Below, one piece after another: positions 1,333 through 28,840 of a DNA stretch of 64,000 nt. Positions within the stretch are counted from its first letter, which is position 1, and every line of letters starts with the position of its first letter. This DNA is from a virus: the UHGV virus genome UHGV-0211472; one strand, written 5' to 3'. Below the pieces are notes generated by a model. It was not told the DNA's origin, ran no database searches, and worked only from the letters and a program-made list of their open reading frames with translations. A program made the position numbers and the translations under genes.

Positions 1333-2367
1333 ATGGCGTATGGAATATGGACAACGCCAGTCGGACCGGGACCAGCTTCTCCGGCTGAGCTTTTTATTGA
1401 TAGTGATTCTACTTTCCCTCAATTCAAGAACAGGGTTAGTGGTAATTACAACTTTAATGGGGGTAGTAGAGATTTCCCTATTTCTGGATGGGATGGCTCA
1501 GGCCAAATCGTTGTAGTCCCCACCGGCTCTTTGTGTTGGCAATGGGAAGTCCCTCCTAATCTTGTCCCTGATGTGTATGTTGTAAACAATATCAGTATTG
1601 TAAATAACTCAACTTTCAGGGTTAGTATAAACATGAATCCCGGAAGTAATCCACTGTTTGACGTGGCTTTCAATGTATACCAAATATGGCCTAGAGCCAA
1701 TAGAAACTATGGTATAACCTTTTCAAACACAGCTGATTACTTCTCTATATCAGATGCTGGAGTTGTTGGTCAATGTATTTGGGCTTGGGAAGGAAACATT
1801 AATGGCTCTATGCAAATACCAGCAATCAGTGGTTTTGATATGTCTAGAGCTTCAGTGTTTGCTAACTGGTCTGGAGGACAAGGTTTACTCTATGATGCTG
1901 GGAGTCGTAATATCAGGGTTTACCAAAACAGAACCTATGATAACGGAAACAACAACCAAACAGGAACAATTAATAATGTGAGAGTTGCAGTGTTCTGTAA
2001 CGGGGCTGGTGTTCCTACTCACAATGGTGGATTAAACATATATTCACCTAATGGTTCTCAGTGTGTATTTTCTACTTACAGAACACCTTTTATGGTTGAT
2101 CGTTTTATGGCTATGAGTGGAGGGAATACTGGACTTACATATCCTATGATACCTCTGACGAACGGGGCAGGTTCTATTAGGGGTCAGGCGGGGAGTTGGT
2201 ATTTCCAACATGCTAGATCTCATACGATGAACGGCTCTTCTTTTGGTACAGGGTATGGTCGATATATGTTCCAGTGGGATAGAAACTACGATATGGGTGG
2301 TGGTGGGGCTATCTCCCTTCAGATTCCAGTCCTAGATGCTAGGAAGATTTTTAGAAGCATACAATAA
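1333..2367 (+). CDS. putative tail/structural protein (344 aa)
   Basis: start ATG 1 nt after the stop of the upstream gene (TAATATGG); Gly/Asn-rich, structural-module context. Confidence 0.5.
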   Translation: MAYGIWTTPVGPGPASPAELFIDSDSTFPQFKNRVSGNYNFNGGSRDFPISGWDGSGQIVVVPTGSLCWQWEVPPNLVPDVYVVNNISIVNNSTFRVSINMNPGSNPLFDVAFNVYQIWPRANRNYGITFSNTADYFSISDAGVVGQCIWAWEGNINGSMQIPAISGFDMSRASVFANWSGGQGLLYDAGSRNIRVYQNRTYDNGNNNQTGTINNVRVAVFCNGAGVPTHNGGLNIYSPNGSQCVFSTYRTPFMVDRFMAMSGGNTGLTYPMIPLTNGAGSIRGQAGSWYFQHARSHTMNGSSFGTGYGRYMFQWDRNYDMGGGGAISLQIPVLDARKIFRSIQ

Positions 2368-2376
2368 GGAGAACTT

Positions 2377-3159
2377 ATGGCAATTAGAATGGGTATAGAA
2401 GAATTAGACCCGATGGTTCAACAGGCTTCAAAGAAGTATGGTATACCAGCTGCTTTGATTCATGCTGTAATTCAAAGGGAGTCTAGTGGTCGTCCTAAGG
2501 TGGCTTCCGGAACTGGTCCTGTTGGTTTGATGCAGATCAGTAAAGGGTTAGCTAAAGATTACGGTTATAAACTAGAAGATAGGCTTGACCCAGCTAAGAA
2601 TATCGACATGGGTGCTCGCTATATCAGAGATAACCTTAAAGCTTTTAATGGTGATGTTAAGAAAGCAATGGTTGGTTATTCAGAAGGTATTGGTGGAGCT
2701 AAGCAGATGTTCGCTGGTAAAAGAGGGTTTACTCCTCAGGCTCTCGACTCTATGAATAATAAGCACTTCCTTCCTTTCTACGGTGATGCAGCTTCTCAGA
2801 TTGCTAACCCTATTGGAGCTTTACAAGCTATCCAACCAGTCAACCAGTTTAATCCTGACTTACTAGACAGAGAGAAAGCTGCACAAGCTCCAACTCAGGC
2901 GGAGATTGCTGCTTCTAAGACAGGAGCTTTAGGAGGTAATCCGGTAGAGTTTTACTCTGATGAAGTGCAGGAAGGGGAAGATCAGAAGCCTCAACAGAAC
3001 TTTGGTAATGCAGTATTAGGAGTAGCTGCTATGCTTGCTGGTAAACCTCCTACTTCTCAAACAGTTCAGAGGGCAAGTGCACCACATGCAGCAGGTTCTC
3101 AGTACAGTCCACAAACACAAGCAGTGCTTAGACGTTTGGCTAGCATTGGTGTAAAGTAA
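2377..3159 (+). CDS. lytic transglycosylase (SLT-domain) protein, probably virion-associated peptidoglycan hydrolase
   Basis: N-terminal motif ...IHAVIQRESSGRPKVASGTGPVGLMQI matches the SLT catalytic Glu-Ser...GLMQ signature; RBS AAGGAG; located between structural genes. Confidence 0.7.
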   Translation: MAIRMGIEELDPMVQQASKKYGIPAALIHAVIQRESSGRPKVASGTGPVGLMQISKGLAKDYGYKLEDRLDPAKNIDMGARYIRDNLKAFNGDVKKAMVGYSEGIGGAKQMFAGKRGFTPQALDSMNNKHFLPFYGDAASQIANPIGALQAIQPVNQFNPDLLDREKAAQAPTQAEIAASKTGALGGNPVEFYSDEVQEGEDQKPQQNFGNAVLGVAAMLAGKPPTSQTVQRASAPHAAGSQYSPQTQAVLRRLASIGVK

Positions 3160-6942: not shown

Positions 6943-9900
6943 ATGGCTAACATTAAACCGTGGGAAGAAGCTTCCAAAGCTCCTGCGTATCTGAATGCCT
7001 CTCCGGAGCAACAAGCTCAAATGAGAGAACAATATAAGGCAGCAGGTGGCTCTATTCCTGAGGAACAACCAGTAGCACAACCACAACAAGAAGAACGTGG
7101 TGCTATAGGTGAGTTTGCTCAAGGTGTGTCAAATGCTCTTCAGTCCGGCAGTGCTAACATCTCTGCTAATCTTGCTAGGGGTATTGGAGGCTTAGTTGAG
7201 ATTGGTGAAGATCTAACTGGAGCACAAACCGGTTACGGGAAGCGTATGCAAGAGAACGCTCAAAATCTCTTGAAAGAACGTATGGATAAGATTGAGGATG
7301 GGATTGGTAAATCTGCTGGTCAGTATGCTGGGGTGGTTGCCGACATTGGTCTGACAGTTGCTAACCCATTAGTTGCCGCTGCTATCATCGCAGGTCGTGA
7401 GACAGGTCGTGCATATGCAGACCAAACCCCTGAAGAGGGGGAAGATAAGTCTGTTCTAGATGCAGCCCTAGTTGGTGGTGCTAACTATGCAGCTCAAAGA
7501 ATCCTTCCGGGTGCTGTTGGGACAGCTGAATCAGCTCTTGGTCGTATCGGTCAGAACGTTGCTAGTAACGCAGTGGCTGGTGCTAAAGGTGGTGCTCTTG
7601 TTGGTGCTGCTGAGGTTCAGAACAAGTATGGTGATGACAATGATCTAGCTAAGACATTGGAAGGTGTTATCGAAGAAGGTGCTATGGGTGCTGCATTCGG
7701 TGGTGCAGTTGGTGGGGTTCATGGTTTGATTAGCCGTCCGGATTCTGCTGTCTTCAGGAATACTCCAGAGTATGCGAAGACTGATATTGCTGCTGATGAC
7801 GAACTGATTCGTAGTGCTAAGAATGTTGATGAATTGAAAGAGGCTTACTCTAAAGCTGAAACTGCTAACGCTGCTTCTGCTCTGAACCTTCTCGATGAGA
7901 ATGGATTCCGTATTACAGATGCTGTTGCTGTAGATTCTCCTGCTGCTCAGCGTATTCTTAATACTGACCAAGCTCGTGCTGAGAAAGCTGCTTCCGTTCA
8001 GAAAGAGCATTCCAACATTCCGGGCCTTAATCCTTTAGCTTCTCCTGCTAAGACTCGTGGTAAAGCATTCGCTGATAATGAGCACAACCAGAAGCAGGCT
8101 GTTGCTATGAAGGATGCAATGGCTGACTACACCAAAGACAACACGAAAGCTCTTACAGATGTTCTGGATAACCTAGATCGTGAATTAACTTCTCTCCGAG
8201 CTTCTGGTGATTTTACTGGTAGTCCGATTGATATTAAGAACCGTACACAAGCCGACCGTGATTTCATTGATGCTTACAAGACTTTCTACAATGAAGCAAA
8301 TCGATTCAAAGCTCGTGATGGTGAAGACTTTAATAACTTTGTAGAGAAAGCTGCTGAACTACAGAAGATGGCTGATAATGTTTCTCCAGAGATGAAGAAA
8401 GCTATTGGTGGGTTGAAGAAACTGAAAGGTATGCCTGAAGGTTTTAATCCTATCCAAGATGCTTACACTCTGAACAATACAGCTAAGTTCATGAGCAATC
8501 AAGATCGTGGTTGGACTTCCCTGACTGATGATGGCTTCCGTGAGGCTTCTTCACCTAGTCTGGTAATGAACACTCTTGGTGCTGCTAAGTATGCTCTGAA
8601 TCGCTTCTCTTCTCAGCGTGCTCGTTCTCAGCGTGTTAAGCAACAAGAGTCTAACAGCGAAGCTATCCGCTCTCTGGCTCGTGGTGATTTGGAAGTTGCT
8701 CGTGCTAAATCTACTGCTGATGAAGCTCGCGCTAAGATGGAAGAAGAACCAGTTGTTGATGACATTAAATTTAAGATGCAAAATGATGTAGAAACCGAAC
8801 CGGTTCGGGAGCCTTCTTCTAGTACTGTGACGGAAGAAAATCTTCCTTCTTCTGTTCCTCAAGAAGCCCCTCTTACGGCTCGTGATTTAGTTGCTCAAAG
8901 ACGTGCAGTTAAGCAGGTGGAACAGCGTCGTGCGCAAGAAGAGGCCGCACAGGCTCCAGAATCGACCGTAGAGGAACCAACCATCAAAGCTGAGCCATTA
9001 CCTGCCCGTGCCCCTAAAGCTCCTAAGGAAGCTGTACAGGATGTTAAACCATCAATTGGTGTAGAACGTTTAGCTGCCATGTCCAGTGCTGCTCGTCAAG
9101 CTACTAAAGATCGTGCAGAACGTTTTGCTCGTTCTCTGTACTCTAAGGCTGCTAAGGCTAAAGCAACTGCTGAGAACTTCTTATCTTACAAGGGTGATCC
9201 TAAGGAGTTGATGCGTCGTATTCGTCAGGAAGATAATGCTATCAACACTGAACGTCATGAAGAAATGGCTCGTAACCAGCTGGCTTCTCAGCAAGGCATT
9301 GCTACTGCTAAGAACAACACGGTACGAACTAATTTTGCTGAATGGGTTAAGGAACGTGGTCTTCCAGAAGACATTGCTACTAAGGCATTACGTGCTGAAG
9401 AGAAAGGTTTAGGTGGGAACGTAACTAACTTGGATAGCCTGAAACGTCGTGCAGAAAGGTTATATCAGAAGCAGCGTGAGGATGAGTTTGATAGGCTGTA
9501 TCAACAAGCTCTTGAAGAGAACAAAGCTTTCGATAATAAGAATGCTCCTAAGCTGGTTGACCAGAAGAAAGAGCTTCAGTCTGAGATTGATGCTTTAATT
9601 GATTCAGAACCTTTACGTCCTGCTCAGAAAGATGCTATGCGTAAGCTGATGAATGACTTTGTAGATGGGAAGTTTAAATCTTCAGAGAAGGCTGGTAGGG
9701 AAGAGGCTTTGGAAGTTGGTCAGATGAAGGATATTTGGGATGGGTTTATCAACACCTATAACAGAGAAGTGAATGCCTTCAACAGAGCTAATAAGAACTC
9801 TCAGTATGAAGCTTTTGCTAAACACATACAGGCTCGTGAAGAACGTCTTGCTACTCTGAAAAATAAAGCTCAGGCTCGTTCAGATGCCAAGGCTGCTGTT

Positions 9901-11250
9901 GAGAATGAACGTAAAACTCTAGAAGCTATTGCAGCTCAAAAGAGTGAGATTGAGAAGATGATGGAAGGTTTACCTAAACCTGTTCGTGAGGCTCAGGAAT
10001 CTCGTACATTGAAACAGTTGGCTGCTCACCACGACAAGAACTCTCCAGTTCCTCCAGAGAAGTTCCGTAGTTACATTGAACGTATCCATAACGCCGAGTC
10101 AGATTACCTTGATCGTCAGCGTCGTTTAACTGATGCAGAGGAAGATGCTCGTCAGGCTAAATGGAATAGGATGTATGAGCAAGCGGAAGAGATGAATCGT
10201 AAGTTTGATGTGGACAAGAGAGTTAAGCGCAGTGAAGAGCTTAAAGCGGCCCAAGAGCGTGAGAATGACCTTATGGCAGTACAACGTCAACGTGATGACA
10301 TCCATCGCCGCCTGATGCGTACTATGGAAGATAAGGGCATATCTAGAGAGGATGCTGAAGCATTTGCTGGTTCCTACATGGACAACCGTTATGCACTTCT
10401 TGAGAAGCCTATGACTCCTACTGAACATCAGAATGCTCGTTCTCGTATCGAAGCTGATGTTGAGAAATTCGCTAAGAAGTACGAATCAATGACTCCTATC
10501 GAGAAAGAGATTGTTAAGGTTACTGGAGATACTGAAGGTAAGCTTGATAACTTGGATGCGGATACTAGGAAGGCTATTGAGGAGGCTCAGAAGGTTGACT
10601 CCGATATTAAGAAACTGCAAGAGGAAGAATTGGAGATGGAGAAGATTCGTTCTGCTCTGCCTGATGATGAAAAATCTCAAGCAAATTCTGATATCTTGGA
10701 AAGCATTAAACAGCAGGAAGAAGCCTTTGCTGATAAAGCAGAGAAAGCTTTCTTGAATGGGAAGAGCTTGGACGAATTAGTCAGTGTGGCTGAAGTTTTA
10801 GACAGAGTGCATGGTGCAGACAAGGCTGGTAACAACCGTCGCTTTGTACGTGCATTGCAGACTGCTGCTGAAAACAAGAAGAAGTATGGAGATAATCCGG
10901 TAGCTTGGTTTAGTGCTGATGATTATTCTGCCATTGCTAAACTTGGTGCTTCTTCCGCAGGTGGTAACAAATCCAGAGCACTGGAGAAGATTTTTGGTTC
11001 TACAGCTGAACAGGCTAAGAGTAAGTTGCTTGGTAGGGATGATGTAGCGAAGATGAGACGTGTGATTGAAGAGAACCCTGATATTAAGATTCCTTCTTAC
11101 AAGACAACGAATCGTACTGAGTACTTGCAGTTCTTGGAGAAGTTTAATGACGAAGGGAAGCCGAAGATTAAACGTGGCTCATTGTCAGAGAAGCTTGAAC
11201 GCAGTAAGCGTCAATCGAGACTCCGTGTAAGAGTTCGACCTAAGGAGTGA
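6943..11250 (+). CDS. large coiled-coil internal virion / ejection-like protein (about 1435 aa)
   Basis: ORF track 6898..11250; preferred start ATG at 6943 preceded by AAAGGAGACGTT; highly charged, Ala/Glu/Lys-rich, last gene of the plus-strand structural unit. Confidence 0.55.
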   Translation: MANIKPWEEASKAPAYLNASPEQQAQMREQYKAAGGSIPEEQPVAQPQQEERGAIGEFAQGVSNALQSGSANISANLARGIGGLVEIGEDLTGAQTGYGKRMQENAQNLLKERMDKIEDGIGKSAGQYAGVVADIGLTVANPLVAAAIIAGRETGRAYADQTPEEGEDKSVLDAALVGGANYAAQRILPGAVGTAESALGRIGQNVASNAVAGAKGGALVGAAEVQNKYGDDNDLAKTLEGVIEEGAMGAAFGGAVGGVHGLISRPDSAVFRNTPEYAKTDIAADDELIRSAKNVDELKEAYSKAETANAASALNLLDENGFRITDAVAVDSPAAQRILNTDQARAEKAASVQKEHSNIPGLNPLASPAKTRGKAFADNEHNQKQAVAMKDAMADYTKDNTKALTDVLDNLDRELTSLRASGDFTGSPIDIKNRTQADRDFIDAYKTFYNEANRFKARDGEDFNNFVEKAAELQKMADNVSPEMKKAIGGLKKLKGMPEGFNPIQDAYTLNNTAKFMSNQDRGWTSLTDDGFREASSPSLVMNTLGAAKYALNRFSSQRARSQRVKQQESNSEAIRSLARGDLEVARAKSTADEARAKMEEEPVVDDIKFKMQNDVETEPVREPSSSTVTEENLPSSVPQEAPLTARDLVAQRRAVKQVEQRRAQEEAAQAPESTVEEPTIKAEPLPARAPKAPKEAVQDVKPSIGVERLAAMSSAARQATKDRAERFARSLYSKAAKAKATAENFLSYKGDPKELMRRIRQEDNAINTERHEEMARNQLASQQGIATAKNNTVRTNFAEWVKERGLPEDIATKALRAEEKGLGGNVTNLDSLKRRAERLYQKQREDEFDRLYQQALEENKAFDNKNAPKLVDQKKELQSEIDALIDSEPLRPAQKDAMRKLMNDFVDGKFKSSEKAGREEALEVGQMKDIWDGFINTYNREVNAFNRANKNSQYEAFAKHIQAREERLATLKNKAQARSDAKAAVENERKTLEAIAAQKSEIEKMMEGLPKPVREAQESRTLKQLAAHHDKNSPVPPEKFRSYIERIHNAESDYLDRQRRLTDAEEDARQAKWNRMYEQAEEMNRKFDVDKRVKRSEELKAAQERENDLMAVQRQRDDIHRRLMRTMEDKGISREDAEAFAGSYMDNRYALLEKPMTPTEHQNARSRIEADVEKFAKKYESMTPIEKEIVKVTGDTEGKLDNLDADTRKAIEEAQKVDSDIKKLQEEELEMEKIRSALPDDEKSQANSDILESIKQQEEAFADKAEKAFLNGKSLDELVSVAEVLDRVHGADKAGNNRRFVRALQTAAENKKKYGDNPVAWFSADDYSAIAKLGASSAGGNKSRALEKIFGSTAEQAKSKLLGRDDVAKMRRVIEENPDIKIPSYKTTNRTEYLQFLEKFNDEGKPKIKRGSLSEKLERSKRQSRLRVRVRPKE

Positions 11251-16680: not shown

Positions 16681-18525
16681 TTAGTGCGTATGCATCCAAT
16701 TTAATCCAATCTGACAATCAGAAGCCAGAGGACATTCCATGTTCAAGTACTCACCAGCCTTCTTAACACAAAGCTCAGTGTGCTCTTTGAGTTTCTGTAC
16801 ATCATTACGATTTACTGAGAATTGGCCCTCATCGTGCATATCAATTACCTTAGCACAACGAACCCCATCCTTCTCAATCCACTTGTTAAGGAACATCATA
16901 GCATATTTCATAACAACAGCACCAGCACATTGCAGGAGTGTGTTAAGGGCTTTATGAACCATAACTTTACCAGTGGCATCTCTTCTCATTGTAATCTTAC
17001 GACCATCAACTCCAATCAAGTATCCTTGAGCAGCTTTCTCTGTCATACGATCAATGAGGATTGCAATACACGGGTTCTCTGCTAAGAAACGCGCTCGCAT
17101 CACTGAACCTTCGTCAGCCCCACCACCTACAATTGAACCAAGCTTAGCATCACCAGCACCGTAGTTGAATGCATAGATAAATGTCTTAGCGTTGTCACGA
17201 GTAGGAAGACCAGCAAGTTTCTGGTTGTGGGAGTGGATATCACCTTCAAGGAGAATATCACGATACATAACAGCAGAAGCTAAACCGCGTTCTGCCAGAG
17301 CTTTCTTAGCTGGGTTATTCTCTTCGATTGCTTCAGCAAGCATATCTCTACACTCTTTGATGAGGTAGTGAGCGAGCATACGAAGTTCAAGTCCAGAACC
17401 ATCATACCCTAAGAATATTTCTTTACCAGCGGGTATGTAATATTTGTAAGCACCTACAGGTTTGTCTTTCTTCCCCGGCTTACCTTTCTCGTAAATTACG
17501 TTAGTACCTTTTCGTATATAACAATCATCAGGAACAACGTTAGTAATAACGAAAGGACGAGAGTGATCACTGTCTGAGTTATAGTCAGACTCAAACAAAC
17601 TGCGACACTCATGACCAAACAAACCACGGGAGGGAATATTAACCACGATACGATGTTTGAATCGAAAAGTCGGCGTAGCACAGCTGTTAGCTTCTGCCGA
17701 AAGTTTACCATCTTTGCGTTCCTTTGCTATGAGTCCGCTGATAAGGCCTAGCCTGTGAGCCGCTACAACACGTCTCTTAAGCAAACTTCCGACACTCCCT
17801 AGCTCACCCCCTAATCCTTCTTCAAGGGTCTCCTCGAGGTTTGTAGGAGCTGTAGGCCACTTGTTTGAGGTAGCTAGTGCTATCTTAATCTCGTCAAAAG
17901 TGATAGGCCTACGTCGGTTAGGATTTAAACCTAAACCAAATACATAAGCCTTCATGTAGTTCTTAGTCTTAAACCTAAAATGCTTCTCTAAGAACTTCCT
18001 GATATCAGCGTCAACCATCTCGGCTGTCTGCTTCTGTTTAGCATTACCTCGCATCCAAGCTGAATACCATGCTTGGTATGTTCCATACTTTCTCATATCT
18101 TTCTTAATTTCAAAAGTATTCCAAGGCTTCTTAGATACGTTAAACTCTGGAGGAAGAAAGCCCTCATCCATAAGAGCTTCTTTAACTCGTGCATCCTTCG
18201 ATGGGTCAAAGTCTACGTATTCGACACAGGTAAAAGCTCCACCAATGTCTTCTCTCTTCAGCCCAACCCTATCGCAATAAGCTTGAGGCCACTTCTGCAA
18301 AGCCCCAGACTTCTTAAATGGCTTCATATAAGTAGAGCCATCTAATCTCATCTTAGGTAAGAGAGGAATTAGTTCTTTATCAATATTAACAATAATCTCT
18401 TTAAGGAGGTGAACATACCACCGAGCATTTCTTCGGTTGAAACTCACTCCGTGCTTTGCTTGCTTAGAGATTATATCAGCGACAGTCATCTCTGTCAAAA
18501 ATGGGAGAGCGTCCGGGTTGCTCAC
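16681..18525 (-). CDS. DNA polymerase family A, polymerase domain only
   Basis: motif A DGSGLELR, motif B RDNAKTFIYAFNYGAGDAKLG, motif C IDMHDEG; no 3'-5' exonuclease motifs in this ORF. Confidence 0.85.
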   Translation of the reverse strand: MSNPDALPFLTEMTVADIISKQAKHGVSFNRRNARWYVHLLKEIIVNIDKELIPLLPKMRLDGSTYMKPFKKSGALQKWPQAYCDRVGLKREDIGGAFTCVEYVDFDPSKDARVKEALMDEGFLPPEFNVSKKPWNTFEIKKDMRKYGTYQAWYSAWMRGNAKQKQTAEMVDADIRKFLEKHFRFKTKNYMKAYVFGLGLNPNRRRPITFDEIKIALATSNKWPTAPTNLEETLEEGLGGELGSVGSLLKRRVVAAHRLGLISGLIAKERKDGKLSAEANSCATPTFRFKHRIVVNIPSRGLFGHECRSLFESDYNSDSDHSRPFVITNVVPDDCYIRKGTNVIYEKGKPGKKDKPVGAYKYYIPAGKEIFLGYDGSGLELRMLAHYLIKECRDMLAEAIEENNPAKKALAERGLASAVMYRDILLEGDIHSHNQKLAGLPTRDNAKTFIYAFNYGAGDAKLGSIVGGGADEGSVMRARFLAENPCIAILIDRMTEKAAQGYLIGVDGRKITMRRDATGKVMVHKALNTLLQCAGAVVMKYAMMFLNKWIEKDGVRCAKVIDMHDEGQFSVNRNDVQKLKEHTELCVKKAGEYLNMECPLASDCQIGLNWMHTH

Positions 18526-18541
18526 TTTATACTCCTTTAAA

Positions 18542-18946
18542 TTATTGGTAAAGTAAATCTGTAAATGCTTGATTGTCAGCTATTGCATCTAGGTCATTAG
18601 GAGATACTCGGATAGTGTTACCTTCAACTCTCCACGGAGTTGGCGTAGGTGAAGACCTAACTTCAAGAGGCTGCTCTCTGACTAGATGGGCCATGACCTC
18701 CTGATCGGCAACTTCCTCTCTTTCTCGAATATCTCTCTGGATGTAGGCCAGCTTCATGCCCCAAGCTTCTTCAAACTCTTGAGGGTGTTTATCACTGATC
18801 ACTACATATCGACGATTGACGGAAAACCTTCTTGCTTTCAAAATAAGATTGCAAAGATCTTCTACTTCATCTTCTTCTAGGTTGTTATAAATATCATCCC
18901 ACTTCACTACACAGAAGCGGTTTTGGTGTCTAGTTGGTAGTGGCAT
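18542..18946 (-). CDS. hypothetical protein (134 aa)
   Basis: ORF in replication/metabolism operon. Confidence 0.45.
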   Translation of the reverse strand: MPLPTRHQNRFCVVKWDDIYNNLEEDEVEDLCNLILKARRFSVNRRYVVISDKHPQEFEEAWGMKLAYIQRDIREREEVADQEVMAHLVREQPLEVRSSPTPTPWRVEGNTIRVSPNDLDAIADNQAFTDLLYQ

Positions 18947-24297: not shown

Positions 24298-25599
24298 TCA
24301 CACTTCAAAAGAGAAACCGCGACCCGATTCATCGGCAAACCGAACTGTACGGGTTTGAGGTTCTAATACTTCAGGGTTGTTGGCAACAAATCTATCAGCG
24401 AGGCTATCTCCTAAATCCTCTATCACATCTTCATCAGTCCACACAGTCCTAACCGGTACATCAAAGTCACCAGCAACAAAACCCTGACCGGAGAATTGAC
24501 GTGCGCTGACAGTAAAGTCATTTGACCGACCACGAGAAGAACCAGTCATCCACCGCTCTGTAGAACCGTTCGTAATACCAAGAGCCTCTTCAAAAGATGT
24601 TCTAGGATCGGGGCTTTCACTTCGTGACTCTTGTGCTCGACGCATTTCAGGGACTGCAAACACCCCTTCCATTGTGTTGTGATGATTAGTCTCATCTTCC
24701 CGACCAAGTAGATCTCCACTTGTATTGGTTGTTAAGTTTGTCAACCCTTCAGACCAATACGCACTAATCTGACTAGATCCATGAACACTTGACATTAACT
24801 GGATTTCTTCATAAGGGATTCCAAAGAATCGACTCATGTCACGATTAACACAATACTGAGCACTTGTTGTATCCTCAACAAGAGCAACCTGACCCCATTC
24901 ATTGATCAGATGACTGACCGGTTGAGGTGTGGGAAGATATCGAGATTGTGCCATATATTGGTATGCAACAGATGGAGCGGAGAATCTTAATACCTGTGAA
25001 TTAGGCCACTTCTTGTGAACATACTTGATTTCACGACCAGAAACAACTACTGGACAGGGGGAGGTCATAGCCAAATATCCATGAGGGGTCATGAATAGAT
25101 TGTCAAGAGTAATCGCACCACGGCACATCATAGGAAAGCTGTCCAACACCTCTTCAATAGAAGTAGGATAGTTAAACATGAATTGGATACGAACCCCACT
25201 CCACTGGAACTCAATAATATCGGTAAATGTTAACAGAGATCCTTCAGCGTAGGCTTCATTCGTAGCTTCAGCAAGAAGGGAAGAGTACTCAATATCTTGA
25301 GACTCGAGCCACTCTTTCACGTTACTTTCAACCTCTCGTCCGAGATCTTGCCACTGGTCATGGTGGATAAAGGTGTTTCGAGTTCTTGGGGCCTGTCCTC
25401 TGACAATAAAGATATCAATGTCATGAGGTGCTCTGTTATTAAGAACAGCATCACGAACAGCCCCACCAGTGATGATGGGACAAATACAGTCTGGAATCAA
25501 GTTGTTGTTAATCAGCTGTTCAATGAAGTGACGACCAACAGCGATATCAGGTTGTTGAGCAACCTTATCTGCAATTCGGTTAATCGGGATAACAATCAT
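24298..25599 (-). CDS. Pol-beta-superfamily nucleotidyltransferase with CCA-adding-enzyme-like head
   Basis: ITGGAVRDAVLNNRAPHDIDIFIV matches the GGxVRD...DxD head-domain motif of class II tRNA nucleotidyltransferases/poly(A) polymerases; preferred start ATG 25599 (one nt after the exonuclease stop); long Ser/Gly/Glu-rich C-terminal region. Confidence 0.6.
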   Translation of the reverse strand: MIVIPINRIADKVAQQPDIAVGRHFIEQLINNNLIPDCICPIITGGAVRDAVLNNRAPHDIDIFIVRGQAPRTRNTFIHHDQWQDLGREVESNVKEWLESQDIEYSSLLAEATNEAYAEGSLLTFTDIIEFQWSGVRIQFMFNYPTSIEEVLDSFPMMCRGAITLDNLFMTPHGYLAMTSPCPVVVSGREIKYVHKKWPNSQVLRFSAPSVAYQYMAQSRYLPTPQPVSHLINEWGQVALVEDTTSAQYCVNRDMSRFFGIPYEEIQLMSSVHGSSQISAYWSEGLTNLTTNTSGDLLGREDETNHHNTMEGVFAVPEMRRAQESRSESPDPRTSFEEALGITNGSTERWMTGSSRGRSNDFTVSARQFSGQGFVAGDFDVPVRTVWTDEDVIEDLGDSLADRFVANNPEVLEPQTRTVRFADESGRGFSFEV

Positions 25600-25600
25600 T

Positions 25601-26158
25601 TTACATTTTCCAATATAATGAAGGTGGGTCGTAAGGGTCAAATCCTGTGAGTTCACACAAGTATTTATAAACCTTAACAGTTAAATTAACGTCCTGTTCA
25701 CAATAAGTAAACATATCCTCAGTGAAAGCATCCCATGCTTCCTCTTGCTCACCGTAATCACCTTTAAGTTCCCCTAAGAACTCACCCCATTGCTTCAAGC
25801 CATGACCTCTTGGGCCATGTCTAGGGTCGCCTTTCGGGTACTCAGGACTGTCACCAATACGGTCAGGTTTAAGATATCGACTAAGACATAAAGTGTCAAA
25901 GACGTTAAAACGATAGTTAATCAGATTGGGATACATCTTCTTCAGAGCACAAAGGTCGAAGTCAATAATATTGTGACCCACGAGCACATCTGCTTCTGTA
26001 AGTTTATGAATCCCATCTTCAATTTGGTGAGGCCGATAGCCCCACCTTTCACCAGTTTCAACATCGAAAACATAAATACACCATACTTTGGTTATATCAT
26101 CGTATAGTGCATTACTCTCAATATCGAATGCAAACACTTTCTTCTTTTTCTTTACCAC
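25601..26158 (-). CDS. DnaQ-like 3'-5' exonuclease (stand-alone proofreading domain of family A polymerase type)
   Basis: Exo I FDIES, Exo II HNIIDFD, Exo III YCEQD motifs; GTG start overlapping the upstream stop. Confidence 0.7.
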
Positions 26159-26712
26159 GGTGAAGCTCCATCTGCTTGGCTGACGAGAGAAGCTGCATCC
26201 TCTCCGTTAGTTAAAACGAATGGATTATCTTCATCAACTTCAAAGTCTTCCCTTTCTACAAGTCTACCGGTTTCACTGATATACTTAGTATAACAGACAC
26301 CTGTCTGACCGTAGTTACGTTCTTTCAGTAATCGAATGACTGAGAGGTTCTTAGCTAAGCCGTCAGCTTGCTTGTCACGCTCAAAGCCAATGATACACTG
26401 ACACCAACGCATAAGAGAACGAGAGCCAGTGAACTGTACTTCACGTACCTGTCCACCTTCTTCATGAGGAGCACCACCTGCCGGAGCATTAAGGTGAGAT
26501 AGCACGAAAGCGGTAAAGTCTAACTCTTTACACATACCAGCAAGCTCGGAAGCGATCTTACTGATTTCAGTGTTAATCTCTGAAGGTGTTAAATGAGATA
26601 CCAGAGCGGTAATGTTATCAAGGATGATAAATTTACACTGGTTTTCAACTACCCAGAAACGAATACACTGTTTAATGTCTTCCCATTCGTTTTGCAATAA
26701 TTCAATGAAGGA
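26152..26712 (-). CDS. primase-helicase, exon 2 (helicase C-terminal part)
   Basis: [33 protein letters not shown]... continues the T7-gp4-type helicase (H2 onward) in frame once the intron is removed; 5' boundary predicted. Confidence 0.65.
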
Positions 26713-26947
26713 CGCAACTCCTTCACCCGTAGCATTATATCTACTGCCCGTGGTTTCCCACGGGATTGGACTATATCATCACTCCTATTAAGGAGGCTAG
26801 GCGCTTCCACTAGCATTAGCTTCTAGTGTACTCCTTTCGGATAGTCTCTGCACTTTCTAGGATGTATCCTAGCTTAGCTCAGGATTGGCATATCTTTCGA
26901 CTTAGCTTTCCCTGAATTCACCTAGTTTTACTTCGGCCATTGTGTTA
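26713..26947 (-). ncRNA. group I self-splicing intron (ORF-less) within primase-helicase gene
   Basis: no ORF; begins with in-frame UAA; P1 pairing of exon end ACUUCGGU with intron GGCCGAAGU (terminal U-G wobble); R-like GCAGAGACUA and S-like GAUAUAGUCC; P9-like hairpin CCCGUGG-GAAA-CCACGGG; terminal G; boundaries uncertain by a few nt. Confidence 0.65.
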
Positions 26948-28195
26948 ACCGAAGTTGTCATACAAGAAGAATTTGTCTGCATAACGAAGTGCTTCATTAC
27001 GCAAATCCTCTTCATCATATTCAACATCAGGTCGGTGGAAAGGAATTGATGCTGACTTACCAGCGATGTTCTTAACAGACATGCCTACCTTCTCTTCCAA
27101 GAAGAAGCCACCCCCATTAAAACCATGTTCTAAGCACAGATGAGCAACAAGTTCGTGAGCAATTAGTGTTTTACCACTACCTACACCACCACCGATGGCT
27201 ACCACCTCTCCCCATCGAATACCGAAGGTCATCTCATTCAGAGTCTTCCACGGGTAGGGGATACCCCACTCCGCTTTCTTCAGAGCATCATCAAGACAAT
27301 CAAAGATTGTTACAGCTCCGGCAGGAGATTCCCGCTTTGCTGAATACTTGAGAATGTTGAATAACTCTTGACCGCGACCAGACAGAAGCATGTCATTCGC
27401 ATCCTTAATCTCTTTCTCCACACCGTTGTATGGGAAAGTTCCTTTAGGAATACGAGCAAACTTAACATGAGGGAATAAAGAACGACCTTTTGTTAAAGCT
27501 ATCTCACCTGCATCATCGTTGTCCATGCAGAGCACAACCTCCTCAAAACCATTTACGAAGTCTCGGTTACGAGACAACACAGAAGAGATTGAACCTGCAC
27601 CGAACGGTAAAGAAACACAGGCTGGTTTAATGTTTGTTGCATTTGTAAAAGCTGTAAGGACATGGAAACCAGACATACAAGATAGCGGGTCTTCAAAAAT
27701 GAACAGCTTCTTGTTGTACACGTCTCCCCGTTGAGCTTGTGCCATACCAAATAAATCTGCTTCTTTCACACTGCCGACGTAATAAAACTTCTTACTATCT
27801 AGCAGTTTAACCTCATATCCGACAATGTTTCCATCACGTTCACGAGGAAAGAAGTAACTGTCTGGTGTCTGACCATCAGTTTGACTGAGACCAATACGAC
27901 ACTCAAAACGCTCTGATACAGCCTTGGGAATTAAACGGCGAGTAAGTTCACCCTGAGGGAGTTCTAAGCAATCATCTAAGACTTCTCTCAACTCTTCAGG
28001 GGATAACTCTTTCTTCTCATTTGGAGTAGGTGTAGTGCCCTTTTCGAACACTTCGTAATTCCCACAACGGTTACAACTTCCCCACTCCTCACCGGTCTCT
28101 TCGTTACGGAAGAGAATCATGTGGTTGTGGGTTTTATCACGACCATGAGAGATACATTCCTTACAACCTGTGTCTCCCAAAATGATCTTTGACAT
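26948..28195 (-). CDS. primase-helicase, exon 1 (zinc-binding primase, TOPRIM, helicase Walker A)
   Basis: N-terminal Cys4 zinc ribbon (CKECISHG...CNRCGNYE), TOPRIM-like acidic motifs, Walker A GGGVGSGKT, ends ...KFFLYDNFG like T7 gp4 ...FHLYDSFA. Confidence 0.8.
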
Positions 28196-28425: not shown

Positions 28426-28840
28426 TTTTCAGATACTCTGACCAGTCACCAGATTCAACCAGAACATCTTGTTCTTCGTCAATATGGTAGATATAGCATT
28501 CAACAATTTCACCTGAATCCATCTTGACGTTGACCAGAGACCTGTTGTAGAAGCTATCTTCAGGGCTATGTTTGTTGTAACCTTCCAGTCGGTCATATGG
28601 ACCTTCCAGACCTGCTTTGTCAGTAGCAAACACTTCTACACGAACAGGCTTATTGTTATTGCTGTGTGCGAGAGAGATGCTCGGGAAGTAGGAACCACCG
28701 TAACGGAACAGATCGAAGTTATCTTCAGTCCAACCTTCACCGATTGACTTAGCACCAGCTCGGTCATTAACTAAATAGTTAGCTTGACCACTTCTCAAAG
28801 ACCCATAACATGCGACTAAAACTTTATTTTGTTCTGACAT
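28415..28840 (-). CDS. gamma-glutamyl cyclotransferase-like (AIG2/GGCT family) protein
   Basis: N-terminal VLVACYGSLRSGQ (YGSL motif) and downstream ...GPYDRLEGY... typical of AIG2/GGCT fold. Confidence 0.65.
   Translation of the reverse strand: MSEQNKVLVACYGSLRSGQANYLVNDRAGAKSIGEGWTEDNFDLFRYGGSYFPSISLAHSNNNKPVRVEVFATDKAGLEGPYDRLEGYNKHSPEDSFYNRSLVNVKMDSGEIVECYIYHIDEEQDVLVESGDWSEYLKSES

Follow-up and report, generated by a model that had tools for sequence, protein, structure and literature searches.

The primase-helicase gene of a phiEco32-like coliphage is very likely interrupted by a functional, self-splicing group I intron of the subgroup IA type, which is 253 nt long and carries no ORF. 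The gene lies on the minus strand of the window, by which we mean the whole 64-kb stretch of DNA that was analysed, and the window represents a member of Kuravirus with ~97% identity to phiEco32, SU10 and some 70 other Kuravirus coliphages. The interrupted gene consists of the following parts, in the order of transcription.

26948..28195, minus strand: exon 1, 416 codons, from the ORF list and identical to residues 1-416 of phiEco32 gp75.
26695..26947, minus strand: group I intron, 253 nt, without a homing-endonuclease ORF, based on the match to RF00028 and the exact insertion relative to phiEco32.
26152..26694, minus strand: exon 2, 180 codons plus stop, starting CAA AAC GAA UGG (QNEW).

In phiEco32, which lacks the intron, a single uninterrupted gene (phi32_75; gp75) encodes a primase/helicase of 596 aa that reads ...FFLYDNFG^QNEWEDIK... 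across the position of interest (the caret marks the junction). Joining the two exons of the window in silico (28195..26948 plus 26694..26152) likewise yields 596 aa, which differ from gp75 only by V587I and S588N. The spliced protein matches the T7 gp4 chains 5ikn_D, 6n7i_A and 1q57_A over residues 117-571 with E values of 1.5e-32 to 5.8e-31, and the alignment to these crystal and cryo-EM chains contains no gap at the junction, where the partner stretch of T7 gp4 is FHLYDSFAEAETDRLL. When the halves were submitted separately to a domain search, only sub-threshold Toprim_2 and DnaB_C matches were obtained. Exon 1, which aligns to T7 gp4, encodes a zinc-finger, the Toprim primase and the N-terminal portion of the helicase, which includes Walker A (GGGVGSGKT), and exon 2 encodes Walker B (FIILDN) and the remaining helicase motifs. 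The host gene thus encodes a T7 gp4-type bifunctional enzyme, in which one predicted spliced polypeptide combines a Toprim primase and, after it, a DnaB/RecA-type helicase, and the break separates Walker A from Walker B within the RecA-like core of the helicase. A first-pass annotation of this DNA had taken the ORF that ends in ...KFFLYDNFG and the downstream ORF at 26152..26697 (minus strand) to be one T7-gp4-type primase-helicase; the two-residue difference from gp75 and the ungapped alignment to T7 gp4 bear this out, and the downstream ORF does hold the rest of the helicase. The phage has a single primase-helicase gene, presumably essential, and splicing is therefore very probably required for its replication. 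The end of exon 2 overlaps a separate gene for a 185-aa DNA polymerase 3'-5' exonuclease subunit (25601..26158, minus strand), and a nucleotidyltransferase gene (24298..25656, minus strand) comes next, both as in phiEco32. The possibility that 24298..26158 represents another interrupted gene was rejected, as this arrangement is normal in the phiEco32 group.

The extent of the intron was determined by comparison with intronless phages. In phiEco32 and ~70 close relatives, the matched span is 253 nt shorter than in the window, exactly at the intron site, and DNA alignment with phiEco32 places the insertion between GG(T) and CAAAAC. The intronless target sequence across the insertion site is given by ...CTTCGGACAGAACGAATGG... 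and ...TATGACAACTTCGGACAGAACGAATGGGAA..., and a 90-nt junction spliced in silico is contiguous in at least 97 related phage records, with a best identity of 97.8%. By sequence comparison alone, the splice sites slide by one base (GG^...UUAUU^G), which leaves the protein the same. The choice between them followed the rule of the family, namely that the intron ends in G and that the exon base preceding the 5' splice site is a U in a pair with G. Because of the insertion relative to intronless phages and these family rules on U and the terminal G, we assign the intron to 26947..26695, a length of 253 nt. The final codon of exon 1 is GGU, the U of which is the 5' splice-site nucleotide, and the in-frame TAA at 26947..26945 that follows directly, as the first-pass annotation had observed, provides the first three intron bases (UAA). 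The last base is G26695, immediately before CAA AAC. The predicted ligated exons read ...UUC GGU^CAA AAC..., with a spliced cDNA junction of GACAACTTCGGT^CAAAACGAATGG. The codon at the 5' splice site is GGT in all four intron-bearing alleles and GGA in phiEco32, the intronless allele that was inspected.

Those four alleles represent every carrier that we found. Among 98 related phage records, Escherichia phage VTCCBPA_211 (PP989838) was the only one with the intron, and a metagenome scan revealed two more carriers, the kuravirus-like contigs L010 (MAVA01000002.1) and L011 (MAUZ01000001.1). Exact-match scans of IMG/VR viral contigs with three intron segments returned no matches to the intron, and neither did GTDB genomes or a megablast search of complete E. 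coli genomes. Copies of the intron are rare in public data. The copies in VTCCBPA_211, L010 and L011 are identical to the window copy in insertion site, P1 and internal guide, and they share ~92-95% identity with it outside P6a. However, each of them is 739 nt long and contains an ORF of 168-176 aa for a NUMOD4+HNH_3 (I-HmuI-like) protein in the P6a loop, whereas the window copy has no ORF; a second ORF-less copy was found in none of IMG/VR, GTDB, the E. coli genomes, the related phage records and the metagenome scan. In the GenBank record of VTCCBPA_211 (PP989838.1 22387..24916; L002 1556..4085), the intron is not annotated, and exon 1, the intron HNH gene and exon 2 are labelled 'DNA directed DNA polymerase', 'hypothetical protein' and 'helicase', respectively. 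Rfam missed the ORF-containing copies of this and related introns (L002, L007, L008, L010 and L011) because of their large inserts, and these copies were compared by alignment instead. In addition, the last ~50 nt (2352..2401) of a 2.4-kb contig, MAVA01000069.1 (L009), match P8-P9 of the intron, and the rest of the contig has no match in the window. We regard this contig as a probable assembly fragment or chimera; alternatively, it could represent another insertion site.

The intervening sequence has the features of a complete group I ribozyme. A covariance-model search, which the first-pass annotation had suggested as a check, identified a match to the Rfam group I catalytic intron family (RF00028) at 26957..26747 on the minus strand, with a score of 86.3 bits against a gathering score of 50 bits, an E value of 1.4e-20 and coverage of model positions 1-253 of 253 without truncation. 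This match is the sole above-threshold Rfam match in the entire window. The intron holds no endonuclease-sized ORF within its 253 nt, as all three forward frames are full of stops, and the earlier description of the spacer as free of any meaningful ORF was correct. The minimum free energy (MFE) fold has a predicted energy of -86.3 kcal/mol and a z-score of -4.57, with none of 200 shuffled sequences equally stable, and it recovers every helix except the P7 pseudoknot. The predicted elements are listed below in intron numbering, for which the window coordinate equals 26948 minus the position; all are on the minus strand.

P1: exon -8..-1 with 11-18; 26930..26955; Rfam alignment and MFE fold.
P3: 23-29 with 145-151; 26925..26919 with 26803..26797; Rfam alignment, MFE fold and covariation.
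P4: 33-38 with 64-69; 26915..26910 with 26884..26879; Rfam alignment, MFE fold and covariation.
P5 and P5a: 42-43 with 59-60, and 47-49 with 54-56; GAAA loop.
P6: 70-71 with 95-96; MFE fold.
P6a: 76-81 with 86-91; hairpin at 26872..26857, CUAGGA-UACA-UCCUAG.
P7 5' strand: GACUAU, 102-107; 26841..26846; within GCAGAGACUA (R element); Rfam alignment.
P7.1: 107-109 with 114-116; UCC-GAAA-GGA; U107 is counted in P7 too.
P7.2: 120-125 with 135-140; 26828..26808; CACUAG-AAGCUAAUG-CUAGUG; MFE fold.
P8: 152-157 with 162-168; 26780..26796; CCUCCU-UAAU-AGGAG(U)G; Rfam alignment and MFE fold.
P7 3' strand: AUAGUC, 174-179; 26769..26774; within GAUAUAGUCC (S element); Rfam alignment.
P9: 184-190 with 195-201; 26747..26764; CCCGUGG-GAAA-CCACGGG; Rfam alignment and MFE fold.
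3' extension (P9.1, P9.2 and the tail AUUGAAUUAUUG): 26695..26744; MFE fold.
P9.1: 204-207 with 216-219; 26744..26729; MFE fold.
P9.2: 222-229 with 236-243; 26726..26705; MFE fold; G26713 in the loop.
Terminal G: 253; 26695.

In P1, the exon strand ACUUCGGU (26955..26948) pairs with the internal guide GCCGAAGU (26937..26930), which sets U26948 (U-1) against G26937 (G11) as a U-G wobble at the 5' splice site, and the UAA stop lies in the P1 loop. P3 spans 26797..26925 and encloses P4, P5/P5a, P6/P6a, the 5' strand of P7, P7.1 and P7.2. The two strands of P7 pair as a pseudoknot that holds the guanosine-binding site. P2 is absent, and within the established classification the intron is putatively of the IA2 (T4 td-like) type rather than IA1 or IA3. 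P7.1 and P7.2 lie between the 5' strand of P7 and the 3' strand of P3, which is the mark of subgroup IA, the usual type in phages (see the review PMC3984707), and the intron is therefore placed in this subgroup. A P9.0 pairing is possible between AAU of J7/9 (181-183; 26767..26765) and AUU at 250-252, before the terminal G, and P10 would comprise at most 2 bp (C-G and A-U). Several of these elements had been picked out in the first-pass annotation: the Rfam alignment pairs the same exon and intron strands in P1, with the terminal U-G wobble, places GACUAU/AUAGUC inside the R-like and S-like elements that had been proposed to form P7, and includes the P9-like hairpin.

The same structure bears on where the intron ends. 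The first-pass annotation had placed the 3' splice site after G26713, which would correspond to an intron of ~235 nt (26947..26713), a 602-aa protein with SFIELL inserted after NFG, and a junction peptide ...NFGSFIELLQ.... Splicing there would preserve the frame and would occur after a G, but is extremely unlikely. G26713 is position 235 and sits in the loop of the P9.2 hairpin, 18 nt too early, and SFIELL is encoded by the 3' strand of P9.2 together with the intron tail. Furthermore, all intronless homologues and T7 gp4 lack these residues, with the relatives joining NFG directly to QNEW (...NFG^QNEWED...), and the size difference to the intronless genomes is 253 nt rather than 235 nt. From the sequence, only the AUU before G26695 would be able to form P9.0 with J7/9. 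The 3' end of the intron is thus G26695.

We also examined whether the helices are conserved among related introns. A blastn search identified related introns (70-73% identity, 63-77% query coverage) in ribonucleotide reductase genes (Rhizobium phage RHph_N3_13 and Roseobacter phage CRP-7), a capsid gene (phage C72C1) and a DNA polymerase gene (Pseudoalteromonas phage pYD6-A), each of which is a full-length match to RF00028 (79-88 bits). The pairing logic of P1 also holds in the CRP-7 and RHph_N3_13 introns. Pairs were counted in an alignment of six sequences, comprising these four introns, the window intron and that of VTCCBPA_211 with its ORF removed, and the count covers 32 pairs in P3, P4, P7, P8 and P9 only; the MAFFT alignment is out of register in P1 (in two sequences), P5, P6, P7.1 and P7.2, and these helices were excluded from the count and described from visual inspection. 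Across the six introns, 95.8% of the cells are paired, compared with 28-43% in controls with partners slid by 1-3 columns, and 15 pairs show changes on both sides, values that none of 500 shuffles reached. Compensatory changes are present in four of the seven pairs of P3 and two of the six pairs of P4, both of which are 100% paired in the six sequences, in three pairs of P8, and in six of the seven pairs of P9, all of which are paired. P7 is invariant and paired in all six, which is compatible with the helix and uninformative for covariation. Among the window copy and its three close relatives (VTCCBPA_211, L010 and L011), compensatory or wobble changes occur in P7.2, P8, P9 and P9.2, including an A-U to G-C change in P7.2 of VTCCBPA_211 and a G-C to A-U change in P9.2 on comparison with the same phage. 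These compensatory changes among same-site copies indicate selection on the predicted RNA fold. The earlier proposal of a group I intron in the primase-helicase gene is thus upheld by the RF00028 match, covariation, the exact 253-nt difference, the alignment to T7 gp4 and 97 contiguous genomes.

Based on the established chemistry of the group I family, we infer that the intron is spliced as follows. The primase-helicase gene would be transcribed with the intron included, and the RNA would fold into P1-P9.2, with P7 forming the guanosine pocket. Free (exogenous) guanosine would attack after U26948, held in P1 by the U-G wobble, and the terminal G26695 would then take the pocket, possibly placed there by the P9.0 pairing. 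Exon ligation (...UUC GGU^CAA AAC...) would lead to the 596-aa protein. On unspliced RNA, a ribosome would be expected to halt at the UAA with which the intron opens, which would keep the downstream ribozyme core untranslated; the only product of such RNA would be 416 aa long, without Walker B and the helicase motifs that follow it.

A different outcome would be expected if the element were a dead remnant that leaves the gene permanently split into a 416-aa primase fragment and a separately translated helicase C-terminal fragment of ~180 aa. The two halves are annotated as separate genes in the GenBank record of VTCCBPA_211, an ORF from TTG 26697 exists, and phiEco32-like phages do split other replication proteins, such as the separate DNA polymerase exonuclease subunit. 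However, the separate-gene annotation of VTCCBPA_211 looks like automatic annotation, not evidence, and the split falls between Walker A and Walker B of a single RecA-type fold. Exon 2 has no ATG, and the TTG is without a usable ribosome-binding site upstream, as the only Shine-Dalgarno-like sequence (AAGGAG) lies 20 nt upstream within the stem of P9.2. The ribozyme core also scores as a complete group I intron with helices kept through compensatory changes among four copies, and the exons keep their phase and differ very little from the uninterrupted gene. We therefore regard a permanently split gene as very improbable and favour a functional intron.

Because the intron lacks an endonuclease gene, it is not capable of homing on its own. 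Its transmission is probably vertical, or else occurs through recombination or co-conversion during co-infection with a relative whose copy of the same intron carries an HNH gene. The first-pass annotation had pointed to a free-standing HNH homing endonuclease ~1.9 kb away, and such a gene is present at 28824..29372 (minus strand), encoding a NUMOD4+HNH_3 protein, but it has no demonstrable link to the intron. The gene lies on an insertion of ~625 bp (window about 28790..29414), flanked by the phi32_78 homologue and the gamma-glutamyl cyclotransferase gene; this insertion is absent in phiEco32, VTCCBPA_211, L010 and L011. The kuraviruses E20-1, EK010 and EcoN5 encode the closest relatives of this HNH (66-70% identity); the EcoN5 copy is annotated beside the gamma-glutamyl cyclotransferase gene, as in the window, and the EK010 copy lies ~1.9 kb upstream of an uninterrupted primase-helicase junction. 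A specific relation of the free-standing HNH to either intron-encoded HNH was rejected, as identity is only 37-38%. Because the HNH insertion occurs in intronless relatives too, nothing ties it to the intron, and the gene is a predicted independent homing-endonuclease insertion, separate from the intron. Elsewhere in this region, L010 (about 9884..10092) and L011 (about 1873..2084) contain an extra ~210 bp upstream of the gamma-glutamyl cyclotransferase gene that is absent in the window (near 29465..29475), phiEco32 and VTCCBPA_211.

These data also bear on collaborative homing, in which the free-standing HNH would cut intronless primase-helicase alleles at the insertion site and thereby mobilise the ORF-less intron in trans. 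Among the genomes seen, the window alone combines an ORF-less intron copy with the HNH gene, the three ORF-containing copies occur without the HNH insertion, the free-standing HNH belongs to the same NUMOD4+HNH_3 family as the VTCCBPA_211 intron-encoded enzyme, and collaborative homing has been documented in other phages (PMC3984707). However, its resemblance to the intron-encoded HNHs is at family level only, its orthologues occupy the same intergenic position in the intronless kuraviruses EK010 and EcoN5, and the co-occurrence with the intron is limited to one genome. The HNH gene is also 1.9 kb and two genes away from the intron site. In documented cases, the endonuclease gene reportedly adjoins its target. 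On these grounds, mobilisation in trans seems improbable, and we retain the reading of two separate elements.

Differences among the same-site copies are concentrated in P6. The ORF-bearing copies have a P6a stem (CCCUUCUCC/GGAGAAGGG) with no relation to the short P6a hairpin of the window. On this basis, we rejected the idea that the window copy arose from a VTCCBPA_211-type intron simply by loss of the HNH ORF. In exon 2 of the same gene, L011 contains a second group I intron (L011 5011..5630; 620 nt) between ...SLMR and WCQC..., with a 111-aa HNH ORF at L011 5117..5452; the equivalent site in the window, 26407/26406, is uninterrupted. The P4-P6 region of this second intron is nearly identical to that of the window intron, whereas its 3' half is different. 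At window 26857..26880, the base of P6 (GAGCUAAGCUAG ... UAGAAAGUGCAGAG) is identical to that of the second L011 intron and differs from that of the first, whereas P1-P5 and P7.1-P9.2 match the same-site HNH-bearing intron (92-95%), which gives the window intron a mosaic appearance and suggests that it could be a recombinant or an ancestral form. Different endonuclease genes are present in the P6 loop in this family: an I-HmuI-like HNH in VTCCBPA_211, L010 and L011, the 111-aa HNH in the second L011 intron, an EndoVII-type gene in Bas93 and another HNH in Bas89. Tentatively, and with some doubt, the window copy may represent the endonuclease-free state of an intron family that has been invaded repeatedly, always in the P6 loop, by different endonuclease genes. 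We also observed that the HNH_3 ORF of VTCCBPA_211 and the EndoVII ORF of Bas93, which are unrelated, both read into the ribozyme core in the same frame (L002 3373..3442 and L008 about 2040..2085; window 26800..26855) and end in ...VQRLSERST(L/P)EAN..GSA.... The ORF-less window intron still encodes this tail in one frame because the tail is ribozyme core sequence.

Subgroup IA introns are established residents of phage DNA-metabolism genes, with examples in T4 td, nrdB and nrdD and in the DNA polymerase genes of SPO1 and T7-like phages (reviewed in PMC3984707). The window intron has in common with them the P1-P9 ribozyme architecture with P7.1 and P7.2 between P7 and P3', a stop codon just inside the intron, a site in a conserved stretch of a replication gene and a sporadic distribution among close relatives. 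Its core from P7 to P7' shares 80-82% identity over ~90 nt with the DNA polymerase introns of Salmonella phage Vi06 and coliphages Bas93 and Bas94. In contrast with the known subgroup IA phage introns, it occupies a different gene and site and is without P2 and an endonuclease ORF. A further resemblance across genes is to the DNA polymerase I intron of KarlSchell_Bas89, KBNP1711 and LAMP, the 5' half of which (3' strand of P1 to P6) is 86% identical to the window intron. This intron, which is 781 nt long in Bas89 (L007 1979..2759) and annotated as a joined CDS, as is that of Bas93, has the same overall family architecture but differs in gene, P1 guide and the endonuclease ORF in its P6 loop. 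KBNP1711 and LAMP give the same short match in the polymerase region as Bas89, and the DNA polymerase I gene of the window (about 16695..18589, minus strand) is uninterrupted at the Bas89 intron site. Because of the 86% identity of the 5' halves, one intron lineage apparently occupies different replication genes within this phage group. The more distant CRP-7 intron shares the P1 loop UAACACAAUGG with that of the window, but the CRP-7, RHph_N3_13, C72C1 and pYD6-A introns are from unrelated phages and genes and have other 3' extensions, several with ORFs downstream of P9.

A literature search returned no description of an intron in phiEco32-like phages (phiEco32, Kuravirus or Gordonclarkvirinae), and neither that search nor the review PMC3984707 yielded an intron in a phage primase-helicase gene. 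The one paper that contained all search terms concerns the DNA polymerase intron of Pseudomonas phage LUZ24 and was set aside. The element type is classical and well known in phages, and the insertion site is one for which we found no description; no concept is changed by an intron in the primase-helicase gene. The finding does correct the gene calling, as the locus is predicted to encode one 596-aa primase-helicase rather than a truncated primase and an orphan helicase fragment, and the same error is present in the GenBank record of VTCCBPA_211. The replicative primase-helicase, with a site between Walker A and Walker B, joins the phage replication genes that are colonised by group I introns. 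If the window copy is indeed the endonuclease-free state of its family, then it and its ORF-bearing same-site twins would constitute a natural before-and-after pair for the acquisition of homing endonucleases by introns. An ORF-less ribozyme, 739-nt HNH-bearing versions at the same site and ~97 relatives with an empty site, all in a genus of easily grown E. coli phages, make a convenient system that could be used to study intron homing, the gain and loss of endonucleases, and co-conversion.
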